This document shows positions 1-28,813 of a stretch of 28,815 bases of DNA, in pieces. Each line of letters starts with the position of its first letter. Positions within the stretch are counted from its first letter, which is position 1. The notes beneath the pieces are model-generated. The model was not told the DNA's origin. It worked only from the letters and a program-made list of their open reading frames with translations, and made no database searches. The position numbers were made by a program, and so were the translations under genes. Where the stretch lies: assembly GCA_031414595.1 (NCBI GenBank), contig JANNVX010000042.1:1-28815 (forward strand). Reading direction: 5' to 3'. Source of the DNA: Deinococcales bacterium. GTDB lineage: Bacteria; Deinococcota; Deinococci; Deinococcales; JAAFIG01.

Positions 1-111
1 CCATATCACTTGGCGACGAGTTTTTTCTTTGGCATCTTTGCACTGTTTGTAGTGTTTCTCGAGTTCTTCAGTCGTATGGTGGGCGGTTAGAGGTGTGCCT
101 AATCTTGACAT
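1..111 (-). mobile_element. 5' end of an IS630-like transposase gene (runs off the window start)
   Basis: Manual translation from ATG at 111: MSRLGTPLTAHHTTEELEKHYKQCKDAKEKTRRQVIW. This resembles the N-terminus ('ELE..Y..C.D..E..RWQ.IW') of IS630-family HTH transposases. AAGGA lies immediately upstream. Not in the ORF track. Confidence 0.6.
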
Positions 112-355
112 TCCTTATTATCTACCTAAAGTTGGTATTAAATCGTTTTGTCTGCGTTTTGTCTGCGCGAAATACAAATCTTTGGTCAGAATAACCCCTT
201 CGTTCCGCTTCGAGGGGTCAAACATAAGTTTCTCGGTAAACATGTACCGAATGCCCGAGTCTCGAGGCTGCCACGTATTTTTAATCGGGCTACGCGCATG
301 GGCTTTGGTTTCCAGTGCTAGAGCTTCCGAAAGAATGCCATATCATCGTTGTCAT

Positions 356-505
356 AGGACAGACACAGGGGTGTCTTGACCATAAACGCGCACCTTCTTG
401 CTCATAAAACGCGGGCTATTCGCGCTGACGGGCATGGTTGCCTATCCCTACAAAAAGGGCATAACAATGTATTTTGTAGGGGCAAACCCCCTGTGTTCGC
501 CCTGC
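356..505. repeat. GTAG-type REP doublet (REPIN-like); left REP interrupted by nested 39-bp elements
   Basis: Right REP is GTAGGGGCAAACCCCCTGTGTTCGCCCTGC (476-505). The inverted left REP is AGGACAGACACAGGGGT(356-372)...ATCCCTAC(444-451) and matches the intact copy at 28734-28762 once about 70 bp are removed. Confidence 0.8.
374..443 (+). mobile_element. 39-bp mini-element (374-395 + 427-443) containing a nested 31-bp internally deleted copy (396-426)
   Basis: TCTTGACCATAAACGCGCACCT [TCTTGCTCATAAAACGCGGGCTATTCGCGCT] GACGGGCATGGTTGCCT. The outer halves total 39 nt and align without gaps to the copies at 2723-2761 and 3418-3456. Confidence 0.75.
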
Positions 506-559
506 TTTTCTGGTTTGTTATTCAATGGTTTGCCTAAGAATCTGGACTTTTCGGAGGCT

Positions 560-660
560 CTATGTGATGATAAACCTCGTACTGGACTTAAGTATTACGG
601 GTTAAGATGGGGTGTGGAAACGTTTTTTGGGAACACAAAAACCCGTGGATTTAACCTTTG
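560..660 (+). pseudogene. IS4-family transposase remnant
   Basis: The frame of ORF 398-745 contains KYYGLRWGVETFFGNTKTRGFNL, matching the IS4 Y-x2-R-W-x2-E-x6-K (YREK) motif followed by RGFNL. The rest of that ORF crosses REP DNA and the antisense of the hydrolase gene. Boundaries are approximate. Confidence 0.65.
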
Positions 661-664
661 CCTC

Positions 665-2119
665 CTAGCGGCTAAACTCGAGTATCCATTGCATACTTGG
701 GTTGGCTCGAGCCGACAAGACATCCAAATGGGTCATGCCGGGTAAGTCGCGCACGGTTATTTTTTGCTGCATTTTCTGCTCGAGACTCTGGTAGGCATCG
801 GCAGCCGTGACGATGCCTCGTCCGCCACGAATGGCTAAAACTGGGATTTTAGTGCTGCCAATATGCTGAACACGCAGGGTGTCTTTTGCCCAGGCTGGGG
901 CTTGTAGTCCAACCGCCCCAATGTCCAGACTTAAACGGGCTGGAAAGTACCATTCTTGAAAATCGGCTTGTGGTGTGTAAAAACGGGTTGCAAAGTCTAT
1001 TGGGTCAGTTAATTCGGCGCTGTCGGTCTGGCTTGGAATATCCCAATCCACGCGGTTTGCTCCGTCTGCTACGCCAACCACATCAAGGGCAAATCCGCCA
1101 ACAAACCACGACAGCACATTGATTGAAACCTTGGCATTTTTGACCCGTCCAGCACTGATTGCAAAAGCACTGACTAAGGCGTGTTGGTCATCGCCTGAAA
1201 TCATACCAGCCGCCAAGTTACTGGCAGGATAAGGCACAATTCCGCCGGGGCTATCGCCATTGGGGTCAAAACGCGCCAATAACGCTGCCGAGCTTAATTT
1301 AGAAAGCCCAGAAGGGTCAAACCCAAAAGCACTAAAATACGGGATGTCCGAACCATTCTCGAGTCCAATTTGTCCAGCCCCACGAATCCCAAAAGGACCT
1401 GTTACCCCAGCTTGATAATCGGCTTGGCTACTGCCATTCTCGCCACTGGTGCGCCCCGCTACACCATCGAGTAGAATTAGGGCATTAATATCTTGATGTC
1501 CGGGTGTACCGGCAAAATCCCAACCAGCATACAAAGACACCATCACTGCCCCAAGGCTATGCCCGCCGAGTAAGACTTTATTGCCGTAGCTTCGCGCCAT
1601 TAAAACAACCCGTCTTAAATCCTCGAGATGAACTTGCAAACCCCAAAAAGCCATGAATTTGAGGTCTTTAGGGTTTACTGGCTTAAAACCATTGGTTTTT
1701 CCTGCATCGCGGATATGGTACTGCCACGCCAGCCTCGGATTACTTTTGGCAAGGGCTTCTTGCAAAACTTGGTGTTCCTCGAGTTGATTACTGCGGCGGT
1801 CTACTGCCCAGACTTCTAGACTTGGGTCTTTGGCGACCATACTCCGCGCCAGACGATCAAAATTGGCTGCTCCACCCAGAAAGCCCGGCATCAAGACCAC
1901 CACGGCTCGAGCTTTGGTGGTCTTAGGCAAGCTGTAACGCACAAAAAAAGCCTTATCGAGTTCGTTGGGTGTGTTCGGTTCATCAAAACCCGCAATACTG
2001 ACCCGTTCGGCATTGACCAATTCAAGGCTTTTTGGATTTGGGATTTCTGCGGCTAAAGGCTGTGTGGCTGGAGCGCAGGCGGCTAAGCAGAGCAGCGCAA
2101 CAAACAAGAAGGATTTCAT
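665..2119 (-). CDS. Alpha/beta-hydrolase fold lipoprotein
   Basis: Lipobox LAAC after MKSFLFVALLC; oxyanion-like PGFLGG; nucleophile elbow GHSLG; C-terminal THLD. Start moved to ATG 2119 because TAGACT lies 7 nt upstream (leaderless). Confidence 0.85.
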   Translation of the reverse strand: MKSFLFVALLCLAACAPATQPLAAEIPNPKSLELVNAERVSIAGFDEPNTPNELDKAFFVRYSLPKTTKARAVVVLMPGFLGGAANFDRLARSMVAKDPSLEVWAVDRRSNQLEEHQVLQEALAKSNPRLAWQYHIRDAGKTNGFKPVNPKDLKFMAFWGLQVHLEDLRRVVLMARSYGNKVLLGGHSLGAVMVSLYAGWDFAGTPGHQDINALILLDGVAGRTSGENGSSQADYQAGVTGPFGIRGAGQIGLENGSDIPYFSAFGFDPSGLSKLSSAALLARFDPNGDSPGGIVPYPASNLAAGMISGDDQHALVSAFAISAGRVKNAKVSINVLSWFVGGFALDVVGVADGANRVDWDIPSQTDSAELTDPIDFATRFYTPQADFQEWYFPARLSLDIGAVGLQAPAWAKDTLRVQHIGSTKIPVLAIRGGRGIVTAADAYQSLEQKMQQKITVRDLPGMTHLDVLSARANPSMQWILEFSR

Positions 2120-2262
2120 AGTCTCGAGTCTACGGGTTTTGTAGCGCGGCAATTTAAGAGTGGGTCACATAAGATAATTGCGGTTTGGGATTTATCAATC
2201 AAAGGTAGCTTCTCGAGGTCTCAAGATATTTAGGATTTGCCCGAAAATAAAATCCGTGAATT

Positions 2263-2320
2263 GCAGGGCGATGACAAGGTTCGCCCTGCAAAAAAACATT
2301 GTCCTGTAGGGGCGAACCTT
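2263..2320. repeat. REP doublet; second REP truncated at the IS110/39-mer insertion
   Basis: GCAGGGCGATGACAAGGTTCGCCCTGCA (2263-2290), then the inverted GTAGGGGCGAACCTT (2306-2320). Same family as 476-505 and 28785-28813. Confidence 0.75.
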
Positions 2321-2345
2321 GCGACCCACGCCCGAAGCAGCCGTG

Positions 2346-3351
2346 TTAAAAGTCAAGCCCCACCCCCACTTTTGCTACCATCATGTCAACCCACGGAGTA
2401 CGGTCACGCATAATAGTATGCAAGACAGCTAATAATTTACGCATACAAGCCACCAAAGCCACCTTCCTAGCCTTCCCTGCCGCTACCAGTCGTTTATAAC
2501 GACTTTTATGGCAGGGTTGTGCTTAACGGCAGTCTGAGCCGCCATATACAGCACAGCGCGAACTTCACCACGACCACCACGAATTAATCGTGAGCCACGA
2601 TGACCACCACTGTCATGATTCATTGGTGCAACCCCAACTAAAGCGCTTAAACTCGAGTGAGAAGCACTACTTAATTCAGGTAAACTCAAGAGTAATGTCG
2701 CCGACACGACTGGTCCGACACCAGCGCGAACAGCCCGATAGGTGCTGTCTTGTGAGCAAGAAGGAACGCCTTGCAGCAGAGCATCTAAGGCTTTAAATTC
2801 CGTGTCAGAGCGAATTAAGGTTCGCATCTGACCGTCAACATCAGCAATTTCCTGCTCGAGAAAATCAATCACACTTTGAATACTGGCTTGAGTGGCAGCA
2901 TCAGTGGTGCTTCCAAGGCGATTTCGTTCCATTTTTATCATCTCGAGGAGTTGTCTGCGACGCGATACAATACTTTCCAAAGCTCTTTTTTGTTGACTGG
3001 CTGGTATCGTGATTTCAGGTCGTATTCGAGATGCAAATTCAGCGAGGATAACAGCATCTATCACATCGGTTTTAGCTAGTTTCCCATTGCTTTGGCAAAA
3101 TCTCGTACTTGCCTTGGATTGACTACTGCAATCGGTAAGTTTGCTTCGCTGCACGCTAAGAATACAGGTTGCTCGAATCCTCCTGTTGACTCACAAGTCA
3201 TTAACGTTGGTTTTTGTTTCTTGATGTATTTTACGAATTGTTTGATACCCTTGGGCGTGTTCTCAAAAGCTAAAACTTCAGCATTGGGTAGAATCACGAC
3301 ATCAAGTCTAGGTTTACAAACGTCAATTCCAACGAATACTTCCTGTGCCAT
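2346..3351 (-). pseudogene. IS110 DEDD recombinase/transposase with two -1 frameshifts and a 13-codon insertion
   Basis: Motifs VGIDVCK, CESTGG, VNPRQVRDF, KTDVIDA, GVGP, DSG and LYMAA. Frameshifts at about 3080 (AMG/KLAKTD) and about 2498; the latter continues YKRLVAAGKARKVALVACMRKLL...GLDF to a stop at 2346. Insert SCSQDSTYRAVRA splits the conserved VPGVGP. Confidence 0.92.
2723..2761 (-). mobile_element. 39-bp mini-element inserted in frame in the transposase
   Basis: GTTC-CT-[TCTTGCTCACAAGACAGCACCTATCGGGCTGTTCGCGCT]-GGTGTC. Removing it restores the codons for V-P-G-V-G-P. Confidence 0.85.
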
Positions 3352-3379
3352 ACGAACTCCTTGAGTAGTGCAGCTTCAA

Positions 3380-3555
3380 TATCGTCCTTCCTTGCAAAGC
3401 GAACTCGAGGTTCAGGCAGCGCGAGTAGCCCGCAAGGTGCTATCTTACGAGCAAGAAGCCGTTCGGACTCGGTTGAAGCGAAGTTCAGCACAACGACCTT
3501 GCTTCGGGACGATCTCAAGGATCAGGGTGCGTGTGGGTCTATTGTGCTGACTCCT
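3380..3555 (-). ncRNA. Predicted IS110 bridge RNA (target-binding loop 3485-3550; donor-binding loop 3384-3468, interrupted)
   Basis: Two stem-internal loop-hairpin modules. Loop segments CACGCACC/CCCGAAG match the element flanks, and ACGGCTGC/TTGCAAG match the element ends. RNA ends are estimated from the -10 box at 3567-3562. Confidence 0.75.
3418..3456 (-). mobile_element. 39-bp mini-element inserted in the bridge RNA left donor guide
   Basis: ACGG-CT-[TCTTGCTCGTAAGATAGCACCTTGCGGGCTACTCGCGCT]-GCCTG. Ungapped homologue of 2723-2761. Confidence 0.85.
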
Positions 3556-3561
3556 ATTATT

Positions 3562-3590
3562 AACTTACAAGGTGCTGTAGTTGTGGTCAA
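3562..3590 (-). promoter_or_regulatory. Hybrid sigma70-type promoter across the IS110 left junction
   Basis: TTGACC (3590-3585, in the flank), 17 bp, then TAAGTT (3567-3562, in the element). The right-end TTGACT (2356-2351) gives the same 17-bp spacing in the circular form. Confidence 0.55.
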
Positions 3591-3626
3591 GAAGGGTCAA
3601 GAAGGTGCTGTCTTATGAGCAAGAAG
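3570..3626 (-). repeat. Stack of nested left halves of the 39-bp element
   Basis: CT-[TCTTGCTCATAAGACAGCACCT 3624-3603]-[TCTTGACCCT 3602-3593]-[TCTTGACCACAACTACAGCACCT 3592-3570]-IS110. The right half of the last copy (TCGGGCGTGGGTCGC) lies at 2335-2321. Confidence 0.75.
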
Positions 3627-3675
3627 AAGGAAGATACCCGTTTTGCCCTTTTGCCCTTTGCCCTTCGCCTGCTCT

Positions 3676-4167
3676 TCACTCGAGTTCGTCCACTGCATGA
3701 ATCCACGCGGCATCAGCATCATCTTGTGGTTTGTGGTGTCGTTCAATAATTTCAGCCACTCGAGCATCACCCTTTGCGCTGCGAATCAGCATTGCGCCGA
3801 ATTGTGGATGCAATGCCCGCACTTCAAGGGCAGTAAGCGGCGTTTTTTTTCGCATTGCCGTATCAAAATCAAGTTCTGGAATGGTTTGTAAGCCAGCCCA
3901 AACCCGTTCGCGCCAACGGTAAGCTCGTACCTGTTTACCACAATCATGAAGCAGGGCAGCGCAAATCAGGATTTTTGAGGCATCTGGTTTGAGTAAAAGT
4001 AAACGCTGCGCCACTCGCACCCCATGTTCTCGGTCTCGAGCATCCATGTTGCTATACACACGGTACTCGGACTCAGGTAGATATGTGGCTGCCCAAGCAT
4101 CGTCGGGCTTAGCAAACTCTGGGCGCATGGCACGAATTAAACGATTGATTCGCAAAAAGAAATTCAT
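3676..4167 (-). CDS. HD-domain metal-dependent phosphohydrolase
   Basis: Motifs REH, ALLHDCGK, HP..GA, IERHH and terminal D. Begins 2 bp after the stop of the upstream gene. Confidence 0.85.
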   Translation of the reverse strand: MNFFLRINRLIRAMRPEFAKPDDAWAATYLPESEYRVYSNMDARDREHGVRVAQRLLLLKPDASKILICAALLHDCGKQVRAYRWRERVWAGLQTIPELDFDTAMRKKTPLTALEVRALHPQFGAMLIRSAKGDARVAEIIERHHKPQDDADAAWIHAVDELE

Positions 4168-4169
4168 GT

Positions 4170-4658
4170 TTAACGAAAATTAAACCCCAAACCCACCGTT
4201 AGCCCAAAAGTACCACCATTTAAGGCTGGAATAAAACTAGGCAGTAACTCGAGGAAAAAACGCCCTCCAAAACCAGTGATATTGCTCTGGTAGCCAATTA
4301 ACCCTCGAAACTCGGCTAAAGCCTGCCCTGCTTGCAACCCTGCGATATTGGCAAAAGAACCAATGATACCCACACCTGCCCCAAGGTAAGCACTCGAGCC
4401 ACCCTGAATTGGCAGCACATAATAGGCATCCAAAGCCAAGCGGTAGGTCACAATCAGGGTGCTGGCACTGGCTCGAAAACCAAAACTGGCATCAGGGAAA
4501 TCCACCCCGAACTGCACCCCAAACTGAGGCAATGCCCAAGCACTGGTGTTACCGCCCGAAAAAGGAAACAGCAATTCGCCGCGCACCCCAAAATACTCTT
4601 CGGCTCGAGCCGAGTTCAGCATAAAAATACCCAATACAATCAATAAGAATCTTTTCAT
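4170..4658 (-). CDS. Exported hypothetical protein, probable small outer-membrane beta-barrel
   Basis: Signal peptide ending ARA; alternating Gly/aromatic strands (YLGAGVG; C-terminal LTVGLGFNFR). Confidence 0.7.
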   Translation of the reverse strand: MKRFLLIVLGIFMLNSARAEEYFGVRGELLFPFSGGNTSAWALPQFGVQFGVDFPDASFGFRASASTLIVTYRLALDAYYVLPIQGGSSAYLGAGVGIIGSFANIAGLQAGQALAEFRGLIGYQSNITGFGGRFFLELLPSFIPALNGGTFGLTVGLGFNFR

Positions 4659-4683
4659 CACGTTTTATATTACAATATACCCA

Positions 4684-5040
4684 ATGAAAGCCTTGCAATA
4701 CCTTCAAGTCGCGCTGTTAATCCTCGGCAGTATTTACTTAGCGGTGGTTCACTTAAACAACGCTAGTGTCTTTGTGACCTTAGAAACGTGGCTCTTAGGA
4801 CGATTCTCGAGTCCAGTCAGCTTGGTGATTTTACTGAGTTTCTTGGTGGGGTTACTGTACGGTTTACTTTTAACCATGCCCAGCATTGTGCGCCGCTCGA
4901 CCCAAATGCGGCGGATGAACAAACGCATCCGAGAACTCGAGAATGCCTTAGCCAAGCAAAAACCCCTGCAATCCGAAACCCCAAGAATCCCAGACCGCGC
5001 CGAAACCCTCGCTGCCCTGCGTTCCGAAGGAAAGATGTAA
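4684..5040 (+). CDS. LapA/DUF1049-like membrane protein
   Basis: Two TM segments with N..V.L between them, then P.SLVILLSFLVG and a coiled coil (RRMNKRIRELE). Start at ATG 4684, 7 nt after TACAAT. Confidence 0.75.
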   Translation: MKALQYLQVALLILGSIYLAVVHLNNASVFVTLETWLLGRFSSPVSLVILLSFLVGLLYGLLLTMPSIVRRSTQMRRMNKRIRELENALAKQKPLQSETPRIPDRAETLAALRSEGKM

Positions 5041-28733: not shown

Positions 28734-28813
28734 GCAGGACAGACACAGGGGTCTGTCCCTACAAAAATCATAAAAATACGTCAGGTAGGGGCGGACCCCC
28801 GTGTCCGCCCTGT
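28734..28813. repeat. Intact GTAG-type REP doublet (REPIN-like)
   Basis: GCAGGACAGACACAGGGGTCTGTCCCTAC (28734-28762), a 22-bp spacer, then the inverted GTAGGGGCGGACCCCCGTGTCCGCCCTG (from 28785). Confidence 0.85.

Follow-up and report, generated by a model that had tools for sequence, protein, structure and literature searches.

A non-coding unit of about 39 nucleotides, the 39-mer, is supported as a real and repeated element of the window (the whole 28,815-nucleotide stretch of Deinococcales DNA that was analyzed) and of the genome from which the window comes (G000; the other G0xx labels denote genomes compared with it). Whole units are shown by sequence comparison to be evidently mobile, being present or absent at otherwise colinear sites. 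The guides of an IS110-family bridge RNA, as read from their sequences, further show a lineage that is RNA-programmed to land in the 39-mer tetraloop, and the 39-mer in turn repeatedly occupies the donor-binding loop of this IS110.

The 39-mer and its copies

The first-pass annotation had placed three full-length copies in the window and they lie where it put them (Table 1). The two uninterrupted ones fit its IUPAC pattern with 0 mismatches, a pattern that gives 0 matches in 100 shuffles of the sequence, and the third is split as described, into 374-395 and 427-443, with a nested copy at 396-426 in between. Reading of the sequence also bears out the partial copies at 3603-3624, 3593-3602 and 3570-3592 + 2321-2335. 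The B-type copy that begins at 374 has the stem GACCAT/ATGGTT, and an intact 39-nt counterpart of the nested copy is found in a paralogous nest (G000:C41:1399-1437). The REPIN that hosts them is part of a ∼245-nt composite (319-565) of which related genomes have further copies; there are many matches to 319-372 and to 442-565, and the two segments abut in G007. An empty REPIN is present at window 28737-28812, and the approximate empty form of the interrupted REP, earlier assigned to 28734, stands at 28737-28761. Ordinary GTAGGG REPs and REPINs coexist with the 39-mer in the same genomes, and the 39-mer invades them.

Table 1. Positions of 39-mer copies, their hosts and the IS110 guides in the window
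Feature	Position	Strand	Remarks
REPIN-type host	350..505	.	two inverted GTAGGG-headed REPs; mini-elements interrupt left REP
B-type 39-mer, 5' half	374..395	+	nhmmer model positions 1-22; split after GCACCT
Nested A-type copy	396..426	+	31 nt; 8-nt internal deletion
B-type 39-mer, 3' half	427..443	+	nhmmer model positions 21-39
D-type 39-mer, 3' half, host split by IS110	2321..2335	-	from IS110 homologue alignment
IS110-family element	2336..3569	-	boundaries from alignment to homologues
A-type 39-mer in transposase gene	2723..2761	-	in frame, 13 codons, between P and G of VPGVG
Right donor guide UUUGCAAG	3391..3398	-	3' strand of stem-loop 2 internal loop
A-type 39-mer in bridge-RNA left donor guide	3418..3456	-	without counterpart in homologues
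Left donor guide, first six bases ACGGCT	3457..3462	-	last two (GC) at 3416-3417, past the 39-mer
Right target guide (RTG)	3502..3508	-	reverse complement = CT core + right flank of window copy
Left target guide (LTG)	3525..3531	-	5' strand of stem-loop 1 internal loop
D-type 39-mer, 5' half, IS110 host	3570..3592	-	ends GCACCT
Further copy, 10-nt 5' fragment	3593..3602	-	sequence read
A-type copy, 5' half	3603..3624	-	model positions 1-22; 3' half missing

Each unit is a single hairpin of 37-40 nt, mostly 39, with a fixed TCTTG at the 5' end and CGC(C)T at the 3' end. It comprises an outer stem of ∼6 bp, where subfamilies differ by compensatory changes, and an inner hairpin with the arms GCACC/GGGC and a T-N-N-C tetraloop. 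The compensatory changes that had been noticed in the window extend to the wider set of copies, since 6 of 6 stem pairs form in 41 of 86 unique copies and the mean number of pairs is 5.20, as compared with 4.16 ± 0.07 in 1000 arm shuffles (shuffle maximum 4.36). As single strands the copies are predicted to fold with no more than marginal stability (z between -1.9 and +0.07). A GCCACC subtype, present in five IS copies, has the arms GCCACC/GGGGC, one base more per arm than GCACC/GGGC, which we read, by eye, as a probable additional inner pair.

In the broad sense of the term, that of an imperfect palindrome of 20-40 nt in high copy number, the 39-mer is a REP. Its length had been singled out as far below that of MITEs; however, REPs of 20-40 bp, some in frame within ORFs, are described in PMC3733652 (articles and preprints are cited here from the portions available), so that so small a size is not unprecedented. 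The tag of the GTAG/CGTC REP super-families (Di Nocera 2013) is lacking from its ends, TCTTG and CGC(C)T and their complements, and CGTC arises only where the variable loop bases are GA. A classical MITE (TIRs of 15-30 bp, TSD, 70-300 bp) was ruled out, the unit being 39 nt long and without terminal inverted repeats; the direct sequence shared at its junctions is at most a 2-nt CT. A REPIN, in which an inverted REP doublet is the replicative unit, was ruled out because clean events insert single units. Arrays of 39-mers are direct tandems, which occur with a 39-nt period, or nests.

An nhmmer search of G000, one of the checks proposed with the first-pass annotation, finds further copies (126 hits at E ≤ 1, of which 97 have E ≤ 1e-3 and 77 have E ≤ 1e-5), and the pattern matches 19, 38, 57, 63 and 74 times at ≤ 0, 1, 2, 3 and 4 mismatches, respectively. 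The 39-mer is specific to a single family within the uncultured Deinococcales, with copies in 18 of 18 other genomes of that family and in 0 of 22 genomes from four sister families; among the matches listed (80 rows) 73 are from Deinococcales/Deinococcota MAGs, and elsewhere there are 7 single hits. In G000, four identical A-type copies each have a context of their own. Old, orthologous copies are numerous, such as C18:26452 in G005 (98.7% identity), and at the intergenic site C72:37839 G000 and G001 hold different subfamilies. Neither a match to the 39-mer in Rfam nor a description of this family in our literature search was found.

Filled and empty sites

Empty sites had been called for as a test of mobility, and exact filled/empty pairs exist for IS110 homologues, for metH and for a gene paralogue in G001. 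The insert at 2723..2761 is absent from the G005 and G003 IS110 homologues at exactly that point, and the insert at 3418..3456 is absent in G003, G005a, G005b and in six G007 fragments; the latter insert is bridged by a Logan contig that covers 2736-3598 with 0 differences (4 runs). Removal of the inserts restores, as had been argued from the window, VPGVG and an 8-nt word identical with the IS right end, both as in the empty homologues. The first-pass annotation had also raised the possibility that intact IS110 homologues might all carry the 13 residues natively, but the homologues of G003 and G005 are without the insert. At the transposase motif, though not at all sites, the opposite course, loss of the unit from a filled ancestor, can be excluded.

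A 39-nt indel in the metH linker, absent in G007, is present in G000, G001, G003 and G006, and metH with the insert is an ORF of 1273 aa in which all five Pfam domains are recognized; the suggestion that 13-codon inserts can be tolerated is thus upheld, as they are carried in frame by intact-looking genes. Further cases are a 39-nt insert in the G001 gene paralogue relative to two empty G000 paralogues, a 38-nt insert in a G016 IS110 transposase gene relative to the window and a 38-nt insert in a G007 REPIN relative to three empty G000 copies. Of 13 nested G000 copies picked by script, 11 were resolved, with 7 of the 11 exactly 39 nt long and CT-ended and 4 of 38 or 39 nt, and for the two that remain the 3' half of the host was not found. 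The nesting first proposed, in REPs, in the unit's own copies, in the IS110 transposase gene and in the bridge-RNA donor guide, is confirmed, and insertion points are often in hairpin loops (REP centers, the tetraloop).

Junctions and a possible RAYT-like route

Insertion junctions had been described as CT followed by G. The enrichment of CT holds, with CT directly 5' of 45 of 103 full-length copies against a dinucleotide background of 5.4%, but a subsequent G is not the rule (G 48, T 28, C 20, A 7; n = 103). For A-type copies the flank is CT in 16 of 22, the unit ends in CT in 19 of 22 and the base that follows is T in 11, G in 6 and C in 5. Over the 103 full-length copies right junctions are C|T in 79, C|A in 17 and C|G in 5, with no CGC found in 2, and left junctions are C|T in 62. 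A CT core at both junctions is absent in the REP-center and G007 REPIN insertions, and one clean insertion stands after G instead of C. Units at non-CT targets begin T-TCTTG and finish CGC, as a C|T cut would release. E. coli TnpA(REP) had been described as cleaving at CT; in the available text of PMC3333891 the cut falls between C and T, not after CT, and such a cut would also account for the inserts at non-CT targets.

Our preferred reading, tentative and at slightly less than an even chance, is that the 39-mer, a REP-sized single-hairpin mobile unit and a landing pad for IS110, would be mobilized in trans by a RAYT-like HUH enzyme. We favor this RAYT-like single-strand route over IS110 acting in trans. 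A RAYT (TnpA-REP)-type HUH/Y1 strand-specific nuclease-ligase, encoded elsewhere in the genome, would recognize the folded hairpin in single-stranded DNA and cut C|T on both sides, yielding a unit that starts with T and ends with C. The released unit would then be joined 3' of C at a different single-stranded position, in most cases C|T but occasionally C|A, and the donor site may remain filled or be resealed. We know of no demonstration so far of complete transposition by a RAYT. In the portions available, E. coli TnpA-REP is reported to require C|T (PMC3333891) and a Marinomonas RAYT to cleave CT and CA (PMC8266576, which still terms REP dissemination poorly understood), and the predominance of C|T and C|A among the right junctions fits RAYT cleavage and joining.

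Two RAYT-like genes with HUH and Tyr motifs are present in G000 and homologues occur in 16 of the 18 family genomes, in keeping with this route. Against it stand G002 and G005 (82% and 84% complete), neither of which gave a RAYT-like match, with 38 copies of the 39-mer in G005. Homologues are also present in 6 of the 22 sister-family genomes, which lack the 39-mer, and in G013 five RAYT-like matches stand beside a low number of pattern matches, 1 exact and ∼15 near. No 39-mer adjoins either G000 RAYT-like gene, so the flanking arrangement of a REPtron is absent there; G003 and G006 do have a 39-mer upstream of a RAYT-like gene, but it is inserted in an ordinary REP whose G007 counterpart is empty. 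Orientation relative to GC skew is without bias (19/28/27/26, Fisher p = 0.32) in a test that has low power because the G000 skew is weak. The missing GTAG/CGTC tag, the marginal folds, this lack of bias and the clean insertion after G likewise count against the RAYT-like route.

It is also conceivable, though in our estimation quite improbable, that units are copied without an enzyme of their own, by replication template switching, hairpin gene conversion or inter-copy recombination, with the hairpin kept by selection for a structural or protein-binding role. The variation in junction length (37-40 nt), the many junctions with short shared bases, the tandem arrays and the many old orthologous copies would all suit such a process, and the different subfamilies at one site in related genomes (C72:37839 and the IS donor loop) could reflect conversion. 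Whole units with the same ends stand, however, at unrelated sites without donor homology, the four identical A-type copies of G000 differ in context, and the uniformity of the ends (right junctions C|T in 79 and C|A in 17 of 103) is far above what microhomology would be expected to produce. There is no preferred orientation to neighboring ORFs (near them, 24 same versus 34 opposite), which argues against a role in mRNA.

The IS110 element and its bridge RNA

The IS110 element is 1234 bp long, degraded and interrupted by two 39-mers. Its ORF pieces (3351-3076, 3154-2483 and 2522-2349) match Pfam DEDD_Tnp_IS110 (PF01548) and Transposase_20 (PF02371) as well as NCBIfam NF033542, the last with a score below the cut-off because the transposase gene is broken; the DEDD/RuvC-like and Tnp domains place the element in the IS110 family. 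An intact 336-aa transposase homologue is present in G003. No other IS110 ends were found in the G000 assembly, where the window copy is the sole one.

At its 5' end the element has a bridge RNA of the IS110 kind, with guides that match both flanks and ends; the consensus fold of 10 copies contains 34 pairs, 8 of them with compensatory change, and no matching family was found in Rfam. The LTG, defined as in the available part of PMC11208160, has the sense of the GCACC(T) arm of the 39-mer inner hairpin. Among the 8 copies where both parts are visible, the RTG agrees with the flank in all 8, across five loop variants (G015 and G016a by reading), and in the window the right flank beyond the IS end, TCGGGCG..., agrees with it. 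The target loop reads the inner hairpin together with the tetraloop, which makes the 39-mer the landing pad of the IS. Once rejoined, the left-donor-guide 8-mer is identical to the bases that precede the final T of the IS right end, and the right donor guide pairs, by eye, with the core and the IS left end with one G-T pair. In 7 of 10 IS copies a 39-mer, A-type in some and of the GCCACC subtype in others, lies inside the left donor guide. The guide check found no donor guide matching the 39-mer ends, which share with the IS ends only core-proximal bases. By its ends the 39-mer does not qualify as an IS110-derived non-autonomous element like MITEPpu9, the left donor guide being the IS right end and the right donor guide fitting the IS left end, not the ends of the 39-mer.

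We consider it unlikely that the IS110 recombinase itself moves the 39-mer in trans, excising it as a single-stranded circle and pasting it at CT sites, in which case the CT core would bound the unit as it does the IS and the preferred site would be the bridge-RNA target, another copy's tetraloop. IS ends and 39-mer do share one form of junction, with CT ahead of the unit and CT as its last bases, both start with T and end in GC, 39-mers nest behind GCACCT, the exact IS landing point, and the donor-binding loop so often carries one. In addition, the ISPpu9 transposase circularizes a small non-autonomous module, ssr9/MITEPpu9, according to the available text of PMC12288879, and IS621 reportedly releases single-stranded circles and acts on half-matched sites (preprint 10.64898/2026.08.31.748434, in part), so that the earlier argument that the unit is too short for a dsDNA circle no longer rules out IS110. 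On the other hand, the left donor guide matches the A-type right end in its last two bases only (hand count), and the right-donor-guide region resembles the shared 39-mer left end only if a bulge is allowed, a near match that does not hold in G015, G016a and G018 (by eye). Insertion sites outside copies have C|T alone in common with the programmed target, and some clean inserts lack a CT core and stand at C|A or G|C. Moreover, the IS protein is found in only 7 of the 18 genomes that all have the 39-mer (plus DNA fragments in G007) and was not found in G006, G009, G010, G011 and G013, which are 91-94% complete, while the sole G000 copy is degraded and twice hit, other IS ends being absent from the assembly.

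Relation to known systems

With REP/BIME/REPIN-RAYT systems, as portrayed in the available portions of PMC3733652, PMC3333891, PMC8266576 and PMC3116915, the 39-mer shares a length of 20-40 nt, an imperfectly palindromic sequence, a high copy number, stem variants that keep pairing, in-frame copies in ORFs, use as an IS target and C|T and C|A junctions, which are RAYT cleavage sites. It differs in the missing GTAG/CGTC tag, in its long conserved inner hairpin and tetraloop and in its occurrence as singlets, direct tandems and nests, with no inverted doublets and no arrangement centered on a RAYT gene. Clean insertion of single units contrasts with REP singlets of Pseudomonas fluorescens, which the excerpted PMC3116915 judges immobile. 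IS200/IS605 elements and their miniature derivatives, which move by single-strand 'peel and paste', are similar to the 39-mer on the RAYT-like reading in that a hairpin is recognized in single-stranded DNA and insertion is 3' of a short specific word without true duplication, a single-stranded circle being assumed (PMC8266576 and PMC6006769, in part). The 39-mer has one hairpin for both ends rather than two subterminal ones, and a lagging-strand bias was undetected in the GC-skew test, whose power is low. IS200/IS605 elements and their miniature derivatives are also at least 10 times larger.

MITEPpu9 (ssr9) is likewise a small non-autonomous unit tied to a REP-targeting IS110, ISPpu9, and transposase-dependent circles of the module alone have been detected (PMC12288879, available text). 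Its boxes are like the IS ends, whereas the far smaller 39-mer has only core-proximal bases in common with them and is spread more widely than its IS110. IS621, ISPpu9 and ISPpu10 share with the element described here two stem-loops, internal loops with target and donor guides, a CT core and a repeated stem-loop palindrome as target (PMC11208160 and preprint 10.64898/2026.03.19.712850, each in part), but the target here is the 39-mer, not a GTAG REP, the RTG tracks five target-tetraloop variants and in most copies a 39-nt hairpin lies inside the left donor guide. Our literature search found no description of the 39-mer as an IS110 target, of an RTG that tracks loop variants or of a hairpin in the left donor guide. 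The cyanobacterial small dispersed repeats of Elhai et al. 2008 are reportedly very short and nest in one another and in genes. Rickettsia palindromic elements are, like the 39-mer, palindromic in-frame inserts in ORFs (PMC3733652, in part). Both kinds of repeat are unrelated to it in sequence and host phylum, those of Elhai et al. being compared by description only.

REP-sized mobile palindromes, some of them in frame, are a kind already known. What is new is an IS110 lineage that is RNA-programmed onto the 39-mer tetraloop, with the 39-mer, in most copies, within its bridge-RNA left donor guide. In the genomes of a single group of uncultured Deinococcales a 39-base hairpin has given rise to ∼100 insertions, including those in genes and in the IS110 that uses the 39-mer as its RNA-guided landing site.

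Copies and Distribution

The two uninterrupted 39-mers of the window fit the pattern proposed in the first-pass annotation with 0 mismatches, and 100 dinucleotide-preserving shuffles gave 0 matches. The third copy is interrupted, as had been described, by a nested 31-nt copy, and an intact counterpart of this nest lies elsewhere in the genome; the reported stack of partial copies, together with a 3' half, proves to be the two flanks of an IS110 element. The further genome copies that were anticipated are present: the 4.49 Mb assembly (120 contigs, 47% G+C) has 19 exact matches to the pattern and 63 at ≤3 mismatches, a profile made from the 63 pattern matches finds 97 places at E≤1e-3, and the 103 places at E≤0.2 form our full-length set. 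One identical A-type sequence (A to D denote subfamilies) is found in four copies in four distinct contexts, and relatives contain arrays in which three or four units follow one another head to tail with a 38-39-nt period.

Coordinates of features discussed in the text (G000, this genome; other G numbers, relatives of the same family; C, contig; L, locus)
Feature	Location	Remarks
Full 39-mer	window 2723-2761(-)	
Full 39-mer	window 3418-3456(-)	
Nested 31-nt copy	window 395/427	point of interruption
Intact counterpart of the nest	G000:C41:1399-1437	
IS110 element	window 2336-3569	1234 bp
Flanks of IS110 element	window 3570-3624 and 2321-2335	partial-copy stack; 3' half
Head-to-tail arrays (examples)	G010:C174:2208-2314; G009:C10:6624-6766	
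Syntenic RAYT-like gene	L203 = G000:C109:4189-4776; loci L177-L184	between trpE-like and trpS-like genes
Second RAYT-like gene	L001 1417-2121 = G000:C98:106765-107469	234 aa
C72:37839 intergenic site	L143 11270-11640 = G000:C72:37769-38139	A-type in G000; G005 there 96% identical
REPIN-like composite	window 319-565 and 28737-28812	
ORF adjoining REPIN	window 665-2152(-)	495 aa
CTCGAG (examples)	window 61-66, 262-267, 689-694	

The 18 other genomes of the family (five genera), MAGs throughout and, being related, not independent, all contain the core pattern, with 1 to 89 exact matches each; G013, which has 1, has about 15 at ≤2 mismatches. It was found in 0 of 22 genomes from four sister families, and a reversed control gave no match. 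With one genome scanned per species, 73 of the 80 matches listed are to Deinococcales/Deinococcota MAGs and the other 7 listed are single matches in unrelated taxa. Two matches on viral contigs, neither with a stem that pairs and both in DNA at 60-66% G+C, are taken as chance.

A separate feature of this DNA is the hexamer CTCGAG, the commonest in the genome with 23,235 sites (5.2 per kb), 24 times the 971 expected from base composition; 10,194 of 23,115 gaps between sites are a multiple of three. The density in 180 loci of relatives is 5.5 per kb, and GCGATCGC has 0 occurrences in the genome. CTCGAG looks like a highly iterated palindrome of this clade; we found no paper linking it with the term 'iterated palindrome'.

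Hairpin Architecture

The subfamilies all have TCTTG, GCACCT and CGGGC and end in CGC(C)T, and the conserved centre is predicted to form a small inner hairpin whose loop is T-N-N-C. RNAalifold, given 86 unique copies aligned with MAFFT, recovered nothing beyond this inner hairpin because the stem register differs among subfamilies, and stem pairs were therefore counted by a register search with an arm-shuffle control. All six pairs are formed in 41 of the 86 copies, with a mean of 5.20 pairs as compared with 4.16 ± 0.07 when the 3' arms are shuffled among copies (maximum 4.36 in 1000 shuffles). The compensatory stem changes noticed at the outset extend across the family, the 6-bp stem differing among subfamilies with both arms changing together, and a subtype with an extra C on the 5' arm also has an extra G on the 3' arm. 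The stability of the predicted fold is modest (z of -1.9 to +0.07), and Rfam returned no match for window 1-5000 at E≤1.

Insertion Events and Junctions

Insertion of the 39-mer is real, with support from five lines of evidence. The IS110 homologues of G005 and G003 (76-78% identical) align across both window sites and lack the 39 nt, leaving a VPGVG motif and an unbroken 5' region as had been predicted from deletion of the inserts, and the 3418-3456 unit is absent from six G007 fragments as well. In an alignment of metH from six genomes of the genus, exactly 39 nt in the linker that joins the homocysteine domain to the pterin domain are missing in G007 and present in G000, G001, G003 and G006; in this genome metH reads open for 1273 aa and retains its five Pfam domains, in line with the suggested tolerance of in-frame inserts. 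An exact 39-nt A-type unit in a G001 gene paralogue falls at a site unoccupied in two G000 paralogues, a 38-nt unit in a G016 IS110 transposase gene corresponds to an empty point in the window, and a 38-nt unit in a G007 REPIN is empty in three G000 copies. Nesting was found by script in 13 copies of this genome and resolved in 11, with an insert of exactly 39 nt in 7 and of 38 or 39 nt in 4; the 3' half of the host was not found for the remaining 2. The fifth line is the set of identical A-type copies noted above, four in number and each in its own context. Further copies are old and orthologous across genomes, and BLAST of flanks in both directions between this genome and 180 external loci gave no additional clean pairs of filled and empty sites. 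The C72:37839 intergenic site was rejected as such a pair, as G005 is without a 270-nt block there and G001 holds another subfamily. Logan contigs from four runs of one study, possibly the source of this DNA, break within 2723-2761 and gave no joint skipping either full window copy; since contigs are blind to rare empty alleles, this is uninformative on ongoing excision.

The REPIN-like composite, which spans ∼245 nt and contains an inverted pair of REPs, has many copies in G001, G005 and G007; its copies at window 28737-28812 and in G007 are without a 39-mer. The 495-aa ORF beside it has a signal-like N-terminus and is conserved in five genomes of the genus (72-96% DNA identity).

The junction rule of the first-pass annotation, CT followed by G, does not hold generally. 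Directly 5' of TCTTG, CT is found in 45 and CTG in 17 of the 103 full-length copies. Past the terminal CGC(C), 79 of the 103 continue with T, 17 with A and 5 with G, no CGC being found in the other 2. Clean A-type events read C|T ... C|T in all cases, and units at non-CT targets (a palindromic REP at its centre, another copy just past GTGC, and G|C in the G007 REPIN) start with T-TCTTG and end with CGC. Cutting a resident copy between C and T on both sides would yield exactly this T-TCTTG...CGC unit, which would unify the junction classes, those of the B- and C-types being based on few clean pairs.

Which Enzyme Moves the 39-mer

These junction statistics are mirrored by known RAYT site use: E. 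coli TnpA-REP needs C|T (PMC3333891) and a Marinomonas RAYT uses CT and CA (PMC8266576). RAYT-like genes with HUH and Tyr motifs number two in this genome, and homologues are found in 16 of the 18 family genomes but also in 6 of 22 non-family genomes. In eight genomes the HUH and Tyr motifs of the syntenic gene have two GTAGGG REPs lying between them, inverted and within the frame in at least five of the eight, and a 39-mer sits within one of these REPs in G015. The second gene, with a low-complexity REP-derived insert, lies in a type I restriction system, flanked by the methylase gene on one side and the specificity gene on the other, and close homologues were found in G001 and G014 only.

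Mobilization in trans by the IS110 recombinase would fit the CT junction and the nesting site that are common to 39-mer and IS, and recent work on related systems reports single-stranded circles for IS621 (10.64898/2026.08.31.748434) and a small module mobilised by ISPpu9 (PMC12288879). However, the protein was detected in just 7 of the 18 other family genomes, plus the G007 fragments, the single copy in this genome is degraded and no further IS ends are present, and the bridge-RNA donor guide sought for the 39-mer ends has no credible candidate among the bridge RNAs searched. A match arising from the 39-mer that resides in the bridge RNA itself is trivial and was rejected as support, as was a bulged near match between the RDG region and the 39-mer ends, which is unconserved in G015, G016a and G018. 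No bias in orientation was detected relative to local GC skew (replication strand) or to neighbouring long ORFs. On the RAYT, IS110 and strand evidence we therefore rank a RAYT-type single-strand route first, at somewhat less than an even chance, then the IS110 recombinase in trans, which we regard as unlikely, and third, as a little less likely again, enzyme-free copying; the probability left over falls to some other enzyme.

IS110 Targeting of the 39-mer

Ten IS110 copies from eight genomes were examined, eight with both flanks visible and two (G005b, G016b) with the left flank alone. All genomes are MAGs, and multi-copy IS elements are therefore under-assembled. Each copy lies within a 39-mer, after GCACCT and before the last loop bases and CGGGC. 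The 5' region forms two stem-loops with internal loops (34 consensus pairs, 8 with compensatory changes), matching the IS621 bridge RNA architecture as outlined in PMC11208160. With guide positions taken from alignments, the first loop has CGCACC(U/C) on its 5' strand and on its 3' strand a heptamer whose reverse complement is the CT core plus right flank in 8 of 8 copies with both visible, across five different loop variants; the second loop has an 8-mer identical to the right end of the IS, together with a word pairing with its left end. Since the putative loop guides match the flanks, the IS110 appears to be programmed for the mini-element, and this lineage shows, judged from sequence, the known REP-targeting habit of IS110 elements with a new target.

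The 8-mer donor guide is itself occupied by a 39-mer in 7 of the 10 copies, by an A-type in the window and G018, by a rare GCCACC subtype in G012, G014, G015 and G016a and by two tandem units of this subtype in G016b; it is empty in G003 and both G005 copies. Because the five rare-subtype copies sit at five different sites with differing target guides, at least one having an open frame, the insert was probably inherited through IS110 transposition. The 5' region of G018 groups in the alignment with G015 and G016a and yet holds an A-type, so that the donor-loop unit has been exchanged. The lineage suggests that a 39-nt hairpin is tolerable in the left donor guide of IS elements that kept transposing, which is relevant to how far the donor loop can be engineered, and it provides a series of right target guides that nature has re-programmed in step with a variable tetraloop.

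Relation to Known Systems and Significance

Small mobile palindromes, in-frame in genes and used as IS targets, are established already (PMC3733652, PMC3116915). The 39-mer behaves most like REP/REPtron/REPIN systems, but GTAG/CGTC tag, REPtron and REPIN tests all came out negative and it is therefore kept out of those families. We found no published account of its architecture, with the supplements of PMC3733652 and PMC11208160 possibly holding related cases, and no description of clean single-unit events, of restriction to one Deinococcales family, of a guide-by-guide match of IS110 to tetraloop or of a hairpin within a donor guide.

A joint reading, which we think improbable even as we set it out, is that of selfish DNA nested at three levels, with adaptation running in both directions. 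A single hairpin would act as both ends, the 39-mer travelling as a single-stranded circle of ∼39 nt; IS110 bridge RNAs would have evolved to read tetraloop variants one by one; and the 39-mer would be an exchangeable hairpin cassette in the IS donor-binding loop that does not stop transposition, the five IS copies at five sites having inherited the same rare subtype. In its boldest form, included in that assessment, the IS110 recombinase with such modified bridge RNAs would itself move 39-mers. If the joint reading is true, the 39-mer would be the smallest known self-contained transposable unit.

The 13-residue in-frame inserts in metH, a nuclease-like paralogue and RAYT-like genes constitute a route by which linker peptides are added to proteins. 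The 39-mer family bears on how REP-sized palindromes spread, by mechanisms called 'poorly understood' in PMC8266576; with unusually clean single-unit events, empty sites in close relatives, defined C|T/C|A junctions and several subfamilies, it makes a biochemical comparison of a RAYT with an IS110 route straightforward.
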